Below, one piece after another: positions 48,191 to 53,133 of a stretch of DNA of 64,000 nucleotides (position 1 is its first letter; the number at the start of each line of letters is the position of its first letter). The stretch covers positions 13,590 to 77,589 of the forward strand of contig NZ_JAUYAW010000052.1 in NCBI RefSeq assembly GCF_030693405.1, in the 5' to 3' direction. The stretch is from Phenylobacterium sp. GTDB taxonomy: Bacteria; Pseudomonadota; Alphaproteobacteria; Caulobacterales; Caulobacteraceae. A program made the position numbers and the translations under genes. The notes under the pieces are model-generated. The model did no database searches and was not told the DNA's origin. It was given only the letters and a program-made list of their open reading frames with translations.

Positions 48191-49510
48191 ATGTATGATC
48201 CGATCCGGGCCTCAGACGCGGTGATCGCGCGGCTGCGCGCCAACCATCCCAGCCTGATCGACCTGACCACCGGGCGGGTCGAGCGCCTGCTGGCGGCCCT
48301 TGGCCACCCCGAACAGCGATTGCCGCCGGTGATCCATGTGGCCGGCACCAACGGCAAGGGCTCGACGGTCGCCTATATGCGCGCCATCGGCGAGGCTGCG
48401 GGTCTCAAGGTCCATGTCCTGACCTCGCCCCATCTGGTCCGCTTCGCCGAGCGCATCCGGGTGGCCGGCGAGCTGATCAGCGACGCGGCGATGGAGGCCC
48501 TGATCAGTGAGGTGGAGGCCGCCAACGCCAGCGAGCCGATCAGCTTCTTCGAGATCACCACGGTCCTCGCCCTGCAGGCCTTCGCCAAGGTTCCGGCCGA
48601 TCTCTGCCTGATCGAAGTGGGCCTGGGCGGCCGGTTCGACGCCACCAACATCTTCGACGCCCCGGCGGTGAGCGTCATCACGCCTGTGGACTACGACCAT
48701 CTGGAGATGCTGGGGCCTGAGCTCTCCAAGATCGCCTGGGAGAAGGCCGGCATCATCAAGGCCGGCCGCCCCGTCGTGGTCGCCCGCCAGATGGATGAGG
48801 CGCTAGGGGTCATCACGGCGGAGGCGCAGGCCCTGGGCGCCCCCATGACCTTGATCGGCGCCGATGCGGACGCCTGGGAGGCCAATGGCCGACTGCTGGT
48901 GCAGTGGGGGGAGCAACTGCTCGACCTGCCGCCGCCGGCCCTGTTCGGCGCCCACCAGTTCGACAACGCCGGCCTGGCGGTCACCGCGATGCTGACCCTG
49001 GGCGATCCCCGCATCGACGAGGACGCCATGGCCCGCGGCGTGGCGTCCGCCCAGTGGCCCGCACGCTTCCAGCGCCTGCGGGAGGGTGCGCTCGGCCAGA
49101 TGGCGGCTGATCGCGGCGCGGTGCTGTGGCTGGACGGCGGCCACAATCCTCACGCCGGGGCGGCTCTGGCCCAGGCCCTGGCCAAACTCACCGCCCGCGA
49201 TCCGCGGCCCGTGGTTCTGATCGTCGCCATGTTCGCCCGCAAGGACGCCGTCGGCTTCTTCGCCCCCTTCGCCGATCTGGCCCCCCAGGTGGTGGCCACC
49301 AGCTTCGACTCTCCCAACGCCGCCCCGGCCGAAGAGATCGCCGCCGCTGCGAGGACGGCGGGGCTCGTGGCGCAGACGGCGGCTGACGTCACCGCCGCGC
49401 TGTCGGCCGCCCTGGCCCTGGAGGGTCCGGCCCCGCACGTCCTGATCTGCGGCGGCCTGCACTTCGCCGGCGAGGTCCTGGCCATGGACCCCGCGACCTG
49501 GCCCCGGTAA
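48191..49510 (+). CDS. folC: Folylpolyglutamate synthase / dihydrofolate synthase
   Basis: IHVAGTNGKGS, SPHLVRFAERI, EVGLGGRFDATN and LDGGHNP motifs. Confidence 0.96.
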   Translation: MYDPIRASDAVIARLRANHPSLIDLTTGRVERLLAALGHPEQRLPPVIHVAGTNGKGSTVAYMRAIGEAAGLKVHVLTSPHLVRFAERIRVAGELISDAAMEALISEVEAANASEPISFFEITTVLALQAFAKVPADLCLIEVGLGGRFDATNIFDAPAVSVITPVDYDHLEMLGPELSKIAWEKAGIIKAGRPVVVARQMDEALGVITAEAQALGAPMTLIGADADAWEANGRLLVQWGEQLLDLPPPALFGAHQFDNAGLAVTAMLTLGDPRIDEDAMARGVASAQWPARFQRLREGALGQMAADRGAVLWLDGGHNPHAGAALAQALAKLTARDPRPVVLIVAMFARKDAVGFFAPFADLAPQVVATSFDSPNAAPAEEIAAAARTAGLVAQTAADVTAALSAALALEGPAPHVLICGGLHFAGEVLAMDPATWPR

Positions 49511-49519
49511 GAGCCAGCC

Positions 49520-49849
49520 ATGGCGCGCACGAAACTGAACCCTGAATTTCCGATCACGGTGGACGGGGACCCCTATGTCTGGCGGCTGCAGCGCCAGCCC
49601 CAGTGGTCCAGCGACGCGGCCGAATGGCGCGGCATGGCCATCGCGGTGCGCCACGTGGAAGGCCAGCGGGAGGCGGTGGTGGAGTTTCCCCCCGGTCCGC
49701 AGCGCCGCTATGGCGCCCCGCAGCTCCAGCCCTCGCACATCCCCACCGATCTGGTGGCCCGGGCCATCACCTCGGCCATCGCCGCCGGCTGGGAGCCCCT
49801 GTCCCGGGGCAAGACGGTGGCTATCGTGGTCGACGCCGAGGGCCGCTGA
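49520..49849 (+). CDS. Hypothetical 109-aa protein
   Basis: Host-like codon usage, starts 9 bp after folC; no motif I recognise. Confidence 0.65.
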   Translation: MARTKLNPEFPITVDGDPYVWRLQRQPQWSSDAAEWRGMAIAVRHVEGQREAVVEFPPGPQRRYGAPQLQPSHIPTDLVARAITSAIAAGWEPLSRGKTVAIVVDAEGR

Positions 49850-49858
49850 GGGCTCGTC

Positions 49859-50476
49859 CTACGGGATCGTCCACCAGCGCCAGAGGACTAGGAAGAGTAG
49901 TCCGATCAGCAACAAGGGCCACCAGAGGTTGCGCCGCGGCCTCTCGGGCCGAACAGGGCGCGCGGCGGTCGCTCGCAGGCGGACCCAGTCGGTAGCTTCA
50001 TCCTCATCGTAGACGAAGCCCGTATAGTGGGCGACCAGCTGCATGGGCACGTCGAACGCGAAATCGACGCCATCCTCGTCCGCCTGCGCCTTGAGCGCCT
50101 TGGCTCTCAGCTCCGCCACGATGGCCGGGAGCGTTCCCTCCACGGCCAGGGGACGTGCCTCGTCGTCCGGGTCATGGGTCACTGACCATTCAAGCTGGCC
50201 GTTCCGATATCCGTGCGCATAGGAGTGCATGGGGATGGAGTACATCTCGCACCCCACGGCCATCTGGTCGGTGGTGGAAGCGGCCAGTTCGAGGTCGGTG
50301 GCCAGGTCCAGGTTCAGCTGACTGGTCACCACGATCCAACCCCCAGGAAAGGTGCGACAGCTATAGTCGCAATCCACCCAATCCCCCGTCGGCGCACCCG
50401 GTATGGGTTCAAGCCCCAGCGCCGCCAGAACCACCTCCAGCTCGACGCCCTGCACCCCGATTAAGGTCGCCCTCAT
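49859..50476 (-). CDS. Putative immunity protein with a C-terminal transmembrane anchor
   Basis: Acidic 205-aa protein; ATGA overlap with the upstream nuclease gene; C-terminus RRNLWWPLLLIGLLFLVLWRWW. Function inferred from context. Confidence 0.55.
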   Translation of the reverse strand: MRATLIGVQGVELEVVLAALGLEPIPGAPTGDWVDCDYSCRTFPGGWIVVTSQLNLDLATDLELAASTTDQMAVGCEMYSIPMHSYAHGYRNGQLEWSVTHDPDDEARPLAVEGTLPAIVAELRAKALKAQADEDGVDFAFDVPMQLVAHYTGFVYDEDEATDWVRLRATAARPVRPERPRRNLWWPLLLIGLLFLVLWRWWTIP

Positions 50477-51813
50477 GGCGCAGTCGCTCCGGGCTCAAGC
50501 TGCGGTTGGGTCGTTGCCCAGTCCCAGGGGAAGATTACTGAAATTGGCAGGCCAAGGGCGGCCCCAATATCCCGCGGGACCGAGTGGTCTACTCGATAGT
50601 TATTGAGTTCAATGGTGGCTTGTATTTGTCGCGGGCTTAAATGAGCCTTGCGCCCGAATTTCGATTCAATAAGTTGCTGCGGAAGTCCATTTTTGTATGT
50701 GCGCAGGTCAGGAAACGTGTGGCCCCCACCCGGTAGCTTGTGCGCGGTCTTTTTTGTCGGACCAGTCTTGTGGCCGCGCACAAAGTTCCTGACACGGGAG
50801 ACTCGCTCGCCCATCACTCCCTTAGCCTTAATCGGCAAGCCATCCATATGCTTGGCTACGCTTGCCCCGACCAAACCGGCGACGGTGGCTCCGGCAGCGG
50901 CCGCTTCCCTCGCTCTTGCGGCGGACTGCGCATTGAGGCCGCCATTTAGGGTATCCTGCGCCACAGACTCGGTTAACCCAGCTGCGGCGCCCGCCCGGGC
51001 CACATTGCCGCGCCGAGCGGCCAAGGCGCCGAGTGTTCCCCCAACGATAGCGCCGCCATAGTCGCCTGGCGTTCCGACCTTCCAATGCGCGACGTCGTCG
51101 ATAGCTTGGCCTATCACGCCGGCTGCGCCACCAGCCCCAGCCAGCGCGGCCGTTTCCCGAAGGATCAGCGGGGCTGTCTGCCCGATGCGAACACCTTGGG
51201 CGGCGGGGACGAGCGCCGCCCCCCATGGACCAAGAAGCGCCCCTGTGACGAGCACCTGACCGCCGACCCCCAGGACCTGTCCGGTCGTCCTTGCTGCGGC
51301 ATAGTTTTGAGCATCGGCGGCGTCCCGCGCGCGCTCTTGCGCCATCCGCTTCTGGTACGATGCGCCGAAATCGTCTCCCTGAAGAACATCGCCCACAGCG
51401 CCGAGGCCAGCATAGGCTTGGTCGCCCAGGCCGAGGGTGAATGCATCTTGCGCGCCGCGTGCGGCGGCGGCGGTTTGAGCCGTCGCCTCCTGCAGCCAAT
51501 CTTGGGCGGCTTGCCCAGGCTGCGCTGAGGCTGGCTTTCGGGTGGGCGTCGACGGACTCGGCGGCTTGGAAACCGCTGTGGACCTTGCTGCTGGACGAGG
51601 CAGGATCCGGCTTGCGCCGGTTTCAATGAGCTGTTCGGCTTTTGAAACCAGGGCGCTCTGCGCCGACTGCGCCGCTCTTTCCACGCCTCGACGGTACGTG
51701 TCCAAGGCCTGTTCGGACCGCTGAAGACCGCGTTGCAACTCCACCTCACGCGCGGCAATCCAGCTTTTCATATCGCCTGCGCCACGGCGCAGGGCGTCCT
51801 GAAACTGTCTCAA
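50473..51813 (-). CDS. Putative polymorphic toxin with a C-terminal PD-(D/E)xK (REase-fold) nuclease; TTG start
   Basis: C-terminal KGVMGE...FPD...IESKFG..LSPRQ; Gly/Ala-rich helical mid region; GAGGAG SD 6 nt before TTG; nuclease tip is AT-rich. Confidence 0.65.
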   Translation of the reverse strand: MRQFQDALRRGAGDMKSWIAAREVELQRGLQRSEQALDTYRRGVERAAQSAQSALVSKAEQLIETGASRILPRPAARSTAVSKPPSPSTPTRKPASAQPGQAAQDWLQEATAQTAAAARGAQDAFTLGLGDQAYAGLGAVGDVLQGDDFGASYQKRMAQERARDAADAQNYAAARTTGQVLGVGGQVLVTGALLGPWGAALVPAAQGVRIGQTAPLILRETAALAGAGGAAGVIGQAIDDVAHWKVGTPGDYGGAIVGGTLGALAARRGNVARAGAAAGLTESVAQDTLNGGLNAQSAARAREAAAAGATVAGLVGASVAKHMDGLPIKAKGVMGERVSRVRNFVRGHKTGPTKKTAHKLPGGGHTFPDLRTYKNGLPQQLIESKFGRKAHLSPRQIQATIELNNYRVDHSVPRDIGAALGLPISVIFPWDWATTQPQLEPGATAP

Positions 51814-51870
51814 GTCATGCTCCTCGATCGGACCGACGACGACTTCTCGCTCAGCGCGAGTTGAGGCCCG

Positions 51871-51898
51871 ATACTACCGCGGTTGAGCTTTGGAGCAA
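51871..51898 (-). promoter_or_regulatory. Sigma70-type promoter for the toxin gene
   Basis: TTGCTC-N16-TAGTAT on the minus strand. Confidence 0.6.
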
Positions 51899-51913
51899 GA
51901 ACAAAAGTAGAAC
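51899..51913 (-). promoter_or_regulatory. Alphaproteobacterial LexA (SOS) box
   Basis: GAAC-AAAAGTA-GAAC on plus = GTTC-N7-GTTC on minus, with AT-rich spacer; directly abuts the -35 hexamer. Confidence 0.8.
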
Positions 51914-52137
51914 ATCTACCCTGACGCACCGGCCGCATCTGACCCTCCCTAACGCCGCGCGGCTGCCGGCTGGGCGATGACGCGGGTGACTTCGGCCATG
52001 GTTTCGGCGCCTCAGGCGCAGAGGGGGCCAGGGCCTCGACTAGGCTGCGCCCCAGTGGGCGCGGCCTTAGTCCACCCGCGGCATGACCTCCTTGTAGTGG
52101 GTCTGCTTGATCAGATCGAAGGCTGGCCGCCTACCCC

Positions 52138-52539
52138 CTAGGCCCAGAGGTCGCCCACGCAGCGGCCGCGGGACGGCAGGTCTTCGAAGGCGCCCAGGCC
52201 GTCGAAATGGCGGATCGGCAGGTGAGCCACCTCGTCCGGCGGGGCGAGCCTTAGATTGACCGCCATCCGCCGCCGGCCGTCCGGCCGCAGGCGCAGGCCG
52301 CGCCAGGCGAGCACGCCGGCGCATGCTGGGCAGAACAGGACCTCCAGCCCCGGCTCGTCCTCGGCGATCCGGCTGTAGGACGAGGTCGGTCCGCTGAGCG
52401 CGATCCGCTCCCCCTCATAGTCATAGGCCCAGAGCGCGCCATAGCGGCGGCAGAGCGTGCAGTTGCAGGCGGTGACCGGGCCTGGGTCACCCTCCAGGGT
52501 CCACTGGCTCTGTCCGCAGTGGCAGGAACCGGTCAGCAT
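52138..52539 (-). CDS. GFA/CENP-V family zinc-binding protein
   Basis: GSCHCG, CNCTLCRRYG, FCPACAG and AVNLRL motifs. Confidence 0.9.
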   Translation of the reverse strand: MLTGSCHCGQSQWTLEGDPGPVTACNCTLCRRYGALWAYDYEGERIALSGPTSSYSRIAEDEPGLEVLFCPACAGVLAWRGLRLRPDGRRRMAVNLRLAPPDEVAHLPIRHFDGLGAFEDLPSRGRCVGDLWA

Positions 52540-52544
52540 GACGT

Positions 52545-52895
52545 TCAGCCCCTCAGGATCTTGCCCATCGCCTTGCCCCTAGCCAGTTCGTCGATGAGCT
52601 TGTCCAGGTAGCGGATCTCCCGCATCAGCGGGTCTTCGATGTCCTCCACCCGTACGCCGCAGATGACGCCCTTGATCTGGGCCCGCGCCGGGTTCATCGC
52701 CGGGGCCTGGGCGAAGAAGGTGCGGAAGTCCGACTGGTCGGCCAGCTGGGCGGCGAAGGCCTCGGAGCTGAAGCCGGTGAGCCACAGGATGATCTCATCG
52801 ACCTCGGCCCTGGTGCGGCCCTTGCGCTCGGCCTTAGCTACATAGAGCGGATAGACGCTGGCGAAGCTGGTGGTGAAGATGCGGTGTTCTGGCAT
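52545..52895 (-). CDS. DUF2200-family protein
   Basis: [29 protein letters not shown] and [14 protein letters not shown]. Confidence 0.85.
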
Positions 52896-52959
52896 CGGGC
52901 GCTCACACGTCAGCGGACGGCGGGGCGTCCGGTTCCAGGCGATCATGCCCCGGTTGGCC

Positions 52960-53133
52960 CTAGTCGTCGATGCCGGGGCGAAGCGGATCCCGCCCGTCCA
53001 GGCCCTCAATGTGGCGACGTTGCTGACGGACGCGGGCGCCCACGTCGTCCGGGCCAGGGCCATCGCGCTCGGGCGATTCAGGCAGCGAAGCCGGGGGGAC
53101 GGACGGCGGGGGCGGGGTGTCGGGAACAGACAT
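52960..53133 (-). CDS. Small 57-aa Pro/acidic protein, below the ORF-track cutoff
   Basis: AAGGAG SD 5 nt before ATG 53133; [60 protein letters not shown] at 52960. Confidence 0.5.

Follow-up and report, generated by a model that had tools for sequence, protein, structure and literature searches.

A LexA-boxed pair of a putative toxin gene and an immunity-like gene of Phenylobacterium sp. that resembles a colicin operon in logic and has no known export route

The window analysed here is the whole stretch of 64,000 nucleotides from Phenylobacterium sp., and the operon under study is read on its minus strand. Two genes only make up this operon: an open reading frame of 446 aa (50473..51813, minus strand), referred to as the toxin gene, and one of 205 aa (49859..50476, minus strand), referred to as the partner gene. 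The stop codon of the first and the start codon of the second overlap in the four nucleotides ATGA (50473..50476, minus strand), an arrangement which may couple their translation. The operon holds no lysis or release gene, the next open reading frame is convergent and the neighbours are housekeeping genes (folC, GFA and DUF2200); a neighbouring protein of 109 aa gave nothing meaningful in the curated libraries (Pfam, NCBIfam, PADLOC and PHROGs). Upstream of the toxin gene lies GTTCTACTTTTGTTC (51899..51913, minus strand), a perfect GTTC-N7-GTTC direct repeat of the alphaproteobacterial type with a T-rich spacer, which was read in the sequence as a putative LexA operator. It abuts the -35 hexamer TTGCTC (51898-51893) of a promoter (51871..51898, minus strand) having a 16-nt spacer and the -10 hexamer TAGTAT (51876-51871), followed by the ribosome-binding site GAGGAG (51825-51820) and a TTG start codon (51813-51811), both within 51811..51825 of the minus strand. 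Only 7 of 12 promoter positions agree with the sigma-70 consensus of E. coli, and a strict sigma-70 scan did not call it. The sequence and the list of open reading frames agree with the initial annotation on the box abutting the -35 hexamer, on the promoter, on the ribosome-binding and start sites and on the ATGA overlap of the two genes.

The operator was then judged by comparison. In the source genome the bare GTTC-N7-GTTC motif is barely enriched (76 sites found against about 59 expected), so a single box is little proof on its own. It is the T-rich-spacer subclass of the box and its conservation upstream of homologues that take it beyond chance. Across 12 homologous loci the pattern GTTC-T-nnn-TTT-GTTC is invariant, which makes 12 of the 15 box positions, and the flanks are unrelated. 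Immediately after the box, with no nucleotide in between, comes a TTGACA-like hexamer, at all 12 of these loci and also at two further ones (L039 and L044). A perfect box is present in three of the four divergent metagenomic carriers, and the box was found at 11 of 17 family loci. In the same genome recA has one perfect GTTC-N7-GTTC box and one with a mismatch, and ssb has the motif too. That homologues keep the box had been set beforehand as a test, and where it is conserved it sits at the -35 hexamer, in the 12 loci and the 3 metagenomic ones. On this comparative evidence the putative operator is functional and the toxin promoter is predicted to be under SOS (LexA) control, with LexA presumably binding to the box.

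The toxin has a helical N-terminus, a Pro/Ser/Thr linker (23% P, 14% S), a Gly/Ala-rich carrier region (17% G, 26% A) and a C-terminal nuclease tip, as derived from the open reading frame list, the alignment and the structure model; its N-terminus MRQFQ... is common to the closest homologues. The layout described earlier, with the motifs KG..GE, PD, ESK and LS.RQ at the C-terminus, is thus real. Its GC content had been put too low: the DNA of the tip has 52-56% GC and not about 44%, the toxin gene as a whole has 64% against 68% for the genome, and its GC3 is 0.64 against about 0.85 in the neighbouring genes. The toxin gave no sequence match in Pfam, NCBIfam, PADLOC or PDB and nothing meaningful in PHROGs, and it is because of this result in the first four libraries that calling it an apparently undescribed type was fair. 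It lacks a signal peptide and any marker of a secretion system, none of the trafficking domains (PAAR, VgrG, Rhs, TPS, LXG) was recognised in it, and the earlier remark that no signal peptide, T6SS marker or lysis gene is visible was likewise correct.

The tip comprises residues 321-446 (50476..50853, minus strand) and was modelled confidently, with a pLDDT of 75-89, in the topology alpha-beta-beta-beta-beta-alpha-beta-alpha, which fits the alpha-beta-beta-beta-alpha-beta core of the PD-(D/E)xK superfamily. Residues E336, D369 (50709-50707), E383-x-K385 (50667-50665 and 50661-50659) and Q396 of its PD-(D/E)xK-like core are invariant or nearly so; G335, D369, E383, K385 and Q396 are invariant across 25 and 60 diverse members of the tip family. 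D369, E383 and K385 are located on strands 370-374 and 377-386 of the model. The best Foldseek matches were 1wdj (probability 0.94) and a viral PD-(D/E)XK nuclease (probability 0.90); proteins of PD-(D/E)xK type top both fold libraries, with matches that are individually weak (E 0.07-0.17). By sequence, the tip profile matched none of the solved nucleases in PDB. None of the Tox-REase profiles of Pfam was matched, either by the toxin of the window (E <= 1) or by 60 relatives (E <= 0.01). The tip domain occurs in about 430 representative clusters, is covered by no Pfam model and carries a net charge of +12. The REase-fold tip of the initial annotation is borne out to this extent, that the model predicts a PD-(D/E)xK-like fold with an invariant D...ExK; the tip is probably a DNase.

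Residues 106-320 (50854..51498, minus strand) form the carrier module, in which ARGAQDAFTLGLGD is a conserved motif and which also has glycine-zipper helices and a single hydrophobic segment (187-205), as found from the invariant columns of the homologue alignment, the GxxxG-type motifs and the computed hydropathy. Within the source genome the carrier is common only to the toxin and its C12 paralogue and is absent from the other SOS-boxed toxin-like genes; among homologous loci its presence goes with the LexA box. Swapping of tips on the carrier was sought and not found, all carrier proteins recovered having the same tip, which is a weak negative as the search was word-limited. Behind another SOS-boxed toxin-like gene of the source genome, its second, lies a gene for a SUKH-1 protein, a match above the Pfam cut-off which counts in favour of the immunity reading. 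Also in the source genome, a LexA box at C23:80906 stands ahead of a phage-like cluster that includes a cell-wall hydrolase (Peptidase_M15_3).

The partner consists of an acidic alpha/beta domain, called domain A, and a C-terminal transmembrane tail of residues 183-205 (49930-49862). Its net charge is -14 overall and -19 in the soluble part, in agreement with the acidity noted earlier, and the tail is hydrophobic. The AF2 model is confident (pLDDT 89.5), with no convincing fold match in PDB and nothing meaningful in the curated libraries, and no DNA-binding domain was found in the partner by Pfam or by fold. A gene coupled by 4 nt recurs downstream of the homologues in three interchangeable types, which are sometimes fused (A, B, A+B and a third). 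In two congeners (G388 and G807) the toxin is cleanly deleted and the SOS promoter and partner are kept, as orphan immunity, and the tip gene is nowhere in either genome; the alleles without the toxin, L024 and L027, still have the same junction GCGCC-ATGA-GGGCG. In genome G032 the operon lies at the same folC site, with flanks that are 88-95% identical against about 51-52% for the toxin and 62% for the partner; the pair diverges far faster than its flanks. The 4-nt coupling, the co-variation with the toxin, the association with an Rhs tip and the survival as orphan all suit the immunity role which the annotation had given to the downstream gene, and by these sequence criteria it behaves as an immunity gene whose product may neutralise the tip. 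Orphan antitoxins occur in intracellular toxin-antitoxin systems too, and for this reason the orphan immunity is suggestive and not decisive.

The distribution of the toxin is patchy: it was found in 14 of 201 Caulobacteraceae genomes and 3 of 27 genera, and 400 other genomes of the class had none. One RHS-repeat protein (P0153) carries the same tip at residues 682-785, after a DPxGL junction, and the gene after it shows homology (E 2e-21) to the partner of L009 type; this Rhs version has no LexA box. No known trafficking domain was detected in 59 of 60 sampled tip-family members. Delivery by T6SS was considered and rejected, the sheath gene being absent from 9 of 10 carrier genomes.

We consider it somewhat probable that this LexA-repressed toxin-immunity operon encodes an SOS-induced, bacteriocin-like interbacterial DNase with its cognate immunity. 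In undamaged cells LexA would occupy the GTTC-N7-GTTC box and block the adjoining -35 hexamer; on DNA damage it would cleave itself, both genes would be transcribed and the ATGA overlap would couple the translation of toxin and partner. The basic C-terminal PD-(D/E)xK DNase tip would be the effector of the 446-aa toxin, and the acidic partner, anchored in the inner membrane through the helix at its C-terminus, would bind and neutralise the tip in the producer. As the operon comes without a gene for export or lysis, the toxin would probably be released through lysis of a fraction of the damaged cells. The glycine-zipper carrier would then probably aid the tip across the membrane of related cells lacking the matching immunity, where it would cut DNA. 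Comparison shows the conservation of the operator, the predicted fold and the motifs of the tip, the co-inheritance and rapid divergence of the pair, the use of the tip by an Rhs protein and the orphan immunity; LexA binding, DNase activity, neutralisation, release by lysis and entry into target cells are inferred. Against the bacteriocin reading count the weak fold matches and the missing sequence-profile match to a solved nuclease, the lack of a signal peptide, secretion marker or lysis gene together with the absence of T6SS from 9 of 10 carriers, and the absence of alternative tips on the carrier, unlike classic polymorphic toxins.

The evidence favours an interbacterial toxin over a suicide nuclease, which we regard as unlikely. 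The latter would be an intracellular SOS-triggered suicide or abortive-infection module, like BapE or like a toxin-antitoxin system, from which nothing exits the cell: toxin and partner would be made together and, under persistent damage or phage attack, the partner would be lost or titrated and the own chromosome destroyed. The lack of export, lysis and secretion markers and of T6SS agrees with it, Caulobacter offers a precedent in BapE, an SOS-induced self-killing endonuclease, and the membrane tail could make the partner degradable or sequestrable. However, the same tip serves as C-terminal cassette of an Rhs protein with a partner-type gene, which is the signature of a delivered toxin, and an orphan immunity gene under an intact SOS promoter is useful against the toxin of neighbours but of little use in suicide. 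A conserved carrier of 320 residues with glycine-zipper helices is also needless for an intracellular nuclease, the genome with the bapE promoter (G210) has no homologue and PADLOC gave no match.

It is much less probable again that the toxin is the cargo of an SOS-induced phage-like particle, or that a prophage lysis cassette supplies the lysis and perhaps the packaging. The boxed phage-like cluster with its Peptidase_M15_3 hydrolase could provide such a function and toxin residues 81-263 gave a weak PHROG match (E 8.5e-4), but the matched family is of unknown function, the match lies in low-complexity Gly/Ala sequence and the neighbours of the operon are housekeeping genes. Tape-measure and virion proteins came up in the viral fold search at a probability of only 0.02-0.11, and with the PHROG match being weak the toxin was rejected as a virion-ejected or tape-measure protein. 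The lowest probability, a very small one, is given to an SOS-induced DNA-repair or processing nuclease with a regulatory or anchoring partner and no toxin. A place in the SOS regulon and a PD-(D/E)xK fold, which is common to many repair nucleases, would suit it, but the patchy spread (14/201 family genomes, 3/27 genera, 0/400 others in the class), the rapid divergence against the flanks, the low GC3, the Rhs fusion of the tip and the loss of the nuclease where the partner is retained do not fit housekeeping repair.

In enterobacteria and pseudomonads, nuclease bacteriocins under LexA control belong to textbook knowledge, and our literature search found no equivalent described behind the alphaproteobacterial direct-repeat LexA box. 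By its sequence features the operon resembles those of colicins in logic, is unrelated to them in sequence and is without a known export route. It also suggests that, among the SOS-regulon proteins of alphaproteobacteria annotated as hypothetical, some are weapons and not repair factors. Three protein families without a Pfam model are defined by these data, namely the tip (about 430 clusters), the SOS-tracking carrier and the immunity-type domains, of which there are at least two, one of them confidently folded and without a solved relative. The operon is a tractable case for studying by what route a large cytoplasmic toxin that lacks a secretion signal gets to other cells, and whether DNA damage can induce the immunity as well. 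A more speculative proposal, which we hold to be doubtful, is that the glycine-zipper carrier gives self-sufficient delivery without a secretion system and that immunity forms a damage-sensing inducible loop. If true, SOS lysis of a few damaged cells would free the toxin, the carrier would take the DNase across the envelope of neighbours, and an attacked cell would turn on its own protection through the DNA damage caused by the toxin, because the immunity gene stands behind the same LexA operator even in toxin-less strains. With the clean toxin deletions that keep promoter and immunity, a single chromosomal site seems to offer natural genotypes of producers and of immune non-producers, which is useful for work on the population dynamics of bacteriocins among Caulobacteraceae of freshwater and soil.

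Among known systems, the best structural matches to the tip are the TT1808/Uma2-type and other PD-(D/E)xK proteins (1wdj, viral PD-(D/E)XK, VRR-NUC, DUF559), with which it shares the E...D...ExK...Q catalytic pattern. This likeness extends to the fold and no further (E 0.07-0.17), without a sequence-profile match, and those proteins are stand-alone enzymes, unlike the toxin tip. In the published descriptions consulted, BapE of Caulobacter crescentus is a DNA-damage-induced endonuclease that fragments DNA and acts on the chromosome of its own cell, and no immunity partner is mentioned, whereas the present operon has a candidate for one. The bapE promoter carries a GTTC-N7-GTTC box (PMC13004042), so the bacterial family and the promoter box are shared. 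The exact published bapE promoter had no match among the 201 family genomes or in an exact contig scan; with 2 mismatches it was located in G210, which has no toxin homologue at E <= 1 and whose genus is without matches. By this comparison, made at the level of that genome and not against the BapE sequence itself, BapE is not a detectable homologue of the toxin. Type II toxin-antitoxin modules have a small toxin and a DNA-binding, autoregulating antitoxin which is usually encoded upstream, whereas here the toxin has 446 aa, the partner is downstream and without a DNA-binding domain, and regulation is by a putative LexA box.

With the polymorphic toxins (Rhs, CdiA) the system shares the tip that ends an Rhs protein after DPxGL and is followed by a partner-type gene, the interchangeable and sometimes fused immunity types, and the orphan immunity genes. 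It differs from them in that 59 of 60 sampled members have no known trafficking domain, no alternative carrier tips were seen, and expression appears tied to LexA, the Rhs version being without the box. The nuclease colicins and S-type pyocins are alike in an operator at the promoter that puts expression under the control of DNA damage, in a modular toxin with C-terminal nuclease and an acidic, co-expressed immunity gene directly downstream, and in fast-evolving toxin-immunity pairs with immune non-producers in the population. There is no sequence or Pfam relationship to them, also none for 60 relatives (Pfam, NCBIfam and PDB). The DNases among colicins are of HNH type and the other nuclease colicins are RNases, whereas the tip here is PD-(D/E)xK-like. 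The present operon is without a lysis gene and is chromosomal at a housekeeping site, its LexA box is the alphaproteobacterial direct repeat, it has a glycine-zipper carrier where those toxins have receptor domains and Tol/Ton-dependent translocation domains, and its immunity protein has a membrane tail.

The window corresponds to C56:13590-77589 of an assembly of 3.40 Mb (68.2% GC), and on re-reading its minus strand all operon features of the initial annotation were recovered: the LexA-type box GTTCTACTTTTGTTC (51913-51899), the abutting -35 TTGCTC (51898-51893), the -10 TAGTAT 16 nt after it (51876-51871), GAGGAG (51825-51820), the 446-aa toxin ORF with a TTG start (start 51813, end 50473) and the 205-aa partner ORF (49859-50476), which overlaps the toxin by ATGA. 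The protein layout described for the toxin was likewise accurate, but the tip DNA, put at about 44% GC, measured 52-56%, compared with 64% for the whole toxin gene and 68% for the genome. The promoter agrees with the E. coli consensus at only 7 of 12 positions and was not called by a strict promoter scan.

A single box, taken alone, is not beyond chance, because 76 GTTC-N7-GTTC sites were observed in the genome against ~59 expected. A T-rich-spacer subclass of these sites stands out and includes the toxin's box, and in the same genome the motif also occurs at recA (a perfect box plus a second, mismatched one) and ssb. That the box is more than chance is decided by comparative sequence evidence. 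Toxin homologues were found in 14 of 201 genomes of the family (3 of 27 genera) and they keep the box, a perfect copy lying upstream of 11 of the 17 loci, with most of the others truncated or having over-called starts. In 12 loci aligned on the box, 12 of the 15 positions are invariant (GTTC-T-nnn-TTT-GTTC) and a TTGACA-like hexamer follows gap-free, with unrelated sequence on either side. Four divergent metagenomic carriers have three perfect boxes and one with a single mismatch; two of the three perfect ones continue into TTGACA or TTGACT. Repressors classically act from operators that overlap the -35, and we infer that LexA binds the toxin box.

The toxin gave no sequence match in Pfam, NCBIfam, PADLOC or PDB. 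Its AlphaFold model, for which 32 homologues were aligned, has low confidence as a whole (pLDDT 57) but is good (75-89) for residues ~320-425, which have the topology alpha-beta-beta-beta-beta-alpha-beta-alpha. Across 25 and then 60 diverse tip members G335, D369, E383, K385, G387 and Q396 are invariant and K331 and E336 nearly so, which gives the E...D...ExK...Q pattern of PD-(D/E)xK nucleases. The best PDB fold match of the tip is 1wdj (TT1808, of restriction-endonuclease-like fold; probability 0.94, E 0.17), with a restriction enzyme also among the matches; a search of viral models had PD-(D/E)XK nuclease (probability 0.90), DUF559, VRR-NUC and restriction endonuclease among its top matches. 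These searches agree with each other, and because each match is weak the PD-(D/E)xK-type fold is graded as likely and not as proven. The nuclease signature noticed earlier in the C-terminus is supported by the model topology, the invariant D369/E383/K385 and these fold matches. The net charge of the tip is +12.

A tip profile matched 430 representative clusters at E <= 1e-3 (306 at E <= 1e-10), and among the matches listed nearly every protein has the tip at its C-terminus or close to it. No meaningful Pfam domain was found in 59 of 60 sampled members; the one exception, P0153, is an RHS-repeat protein in which a DPxGL junction leads into glycine-rich helices and the tip, and its stop is overlapped by 4 nt by the gene of P0199, a homologue of the partner in loci L009 and L010 (33% identity, E 2e-21). 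Polymorphic toxins are defined by a C-terminal cassette on Rhs and other architectures, each with a matching downstream gene; on this comparison the tip is a toxin domain. The database gene call for the 589-aa protein P0011 merges the toxin with the GFA-family gene that lies upstream, a start-site artefact, and shows that the same GFA-toxin adjacency is present in a relative.

The partner is modelled as a confident alpha/beta domain (pLDDT 89.5, pTM 0.79) with no convincing solved relative in a PDB fold search; its soluble part has a net charge of -19 and its C-terminus is a hydrophobic helix (residues 183-205). The tip family has three partner types, all coupled to the toxin stop: domain A as in the window, alone or with a membrane tail; domain B, unrelated to A, which occurs alone (L009, L010, L039, the Rhs locus) or fused behind A (L004, L007, L008, L016 and a paralogue on contig C12); and a third type (L044). 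In L012 (842-1183) and L013 (396-659), further domain A-like ORFs are encoded on the opposite strand, upstream of the toxin, and may be additional orphan immunity genes.

At the same site in genome G032, folC and the 109-aa ORF are 88% and 95% identical to those of the window, against ~51-52% for the toxin and 62% for the partner; G817 is the reverse (toxin 92%, partner 86%, flanking 109-aa ORF 82%). The cassette has therefore been swapped, or has diversified, separately from its surroundings. The most telling population evidence comes from G388 and G807, where the order is DUF2200, GFA, box with promoter, leader, short remnant, ATGA and partner (73% and 70% identical to the window's, respectively). 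The remnant in L024 is ten codons ending in the same GCGCC-ATGA-GGGCG junction as in the window, and a tip-domain gene was absent from both whole genomes while positive controls gave matches; the toxin was thus cleanly deleted and the SOS promoter and immunity gene retained. These alleles look like the immune non-producers of bacteriocin systems.

Identity around the cassette is mosaic (L024, L027, L029 and L003 against window 48191-53063; in G388 the 109-aa ORF 100%, partner 73%, GFA 87%), which suggests recombination breakpoints flanking the operon. The 109-aa orphan ORF (49520-49849, plus strand, convergent with the operon) has no family match. It is a genuine, conserved ORF: of 41 genomes of the genus, 20 keep it at 67-100% identity, and in several congeners it has another context with no folC nearby.

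Several more genes behind T-rich-spacer boxes in the same genome encode toxin-like proteins with low GC3. A 385-aa paralogue with the same tip in an F.LYH variant (C12:~600-1870, minus, L002/L023) has its own box GTTCTTACTTTGTTC and an A+B-type partner cut by the contig end. A LexA-boxed 319-aa protein of low GC3 with an ..EVHHRVAL.. C-terminus (C40:95193 and ~1.6 kb downstream, plus) is overlapped by a 180-aa ORF matching SMI1/KNR4 (SUKH-1) above Pfam's cut-off, and the pair is a second candidate SOS-boxed toxin-immunity system with an unrelated toxin. Two orphan proteins behind such boxes, of 378 aa with an NRGHHYIP tip (C3:23353, plus) and 217 aa with an EEIHHSIAL tip (C40:20125, minus), are laid out like toxins and match nothing in Pfam. 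Within this genome the carrier module is shared with the C12 paralogue and not with the other SOS-boxed toxin-like genes. In a word-limited search, all proteins found with the carrier region had the same tip, so that no tip-swapping was seen on it.

The toxin operon has neither a signal peptide nor a lysis gene, as noted at first, and no trafficking domain, and the T6SS sheath gene is absent in 9 of 10 carrier genomes including the window's own (99.95% complete). The LexA box goes with the carrier module and the Rhs version is without it, and SOS control therefore seems linked to the way in which the carrier functions. A single hydrophobic segment and numerous GxxxG-type motifs occur in this module; the toxin is probably freed by lysis of damaged cells and probably passes the membrane with help of this glycine-zipper region, the least secure step in the model. 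Elsewhere in the genome, a LexA-type box (C23:80906 and ~2 kb downstream, minus) precedes a phage-like cluster with a Peptidase_M15_3 cell-wall hydrolase and a terminase-like ORF (assigned by reading; no Pfam match), a possible release helper or SOS-inducible lysis function.

The proposal of an SOS-boxed nuclease toxin with immunity draws support from box conservation, tip fold and motifs, the Rhs link and the toxin-less alleles. The operon is rather probably an SOS-induced, bacteriocin-like interbacterial DNase with its cognate immunity; the main rival, a suicide or abortive module acting inside the cell, is considered unlikely. All these functional statements come from sequence comparison and predicted structure.

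The literature covered by the search contains no report of SOS-boxed toxin-immunity pairs in Alphaproteobacteria. The nearest regulatory analogue is BapE, the SOS-induced endonuclease of Caulobacter; the genome with the bapE promoter (G210) has no toxin homologue at E <= 1. There, the bapE promoter region as published recurs, with 2 mismatches, at L020 (C1 ~1560990) beside a tRNA-like stretch, and on the other side a 107-aa Zn-ribbon-like ORF, a 126-aa ORF and a SRAP (SOS response associated peptidase) gene. With polymorphic toxins the operon has the cassette logic in common, although the window toxin is without a trafficking domain. Colicins and S-pyocins are alike in logic but differ in ancestry; of the features of that family, the toxin operon lacks the lysis gene and the domain homology. 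The protein families that make up this probable bacteriocin-like system are undescribed.
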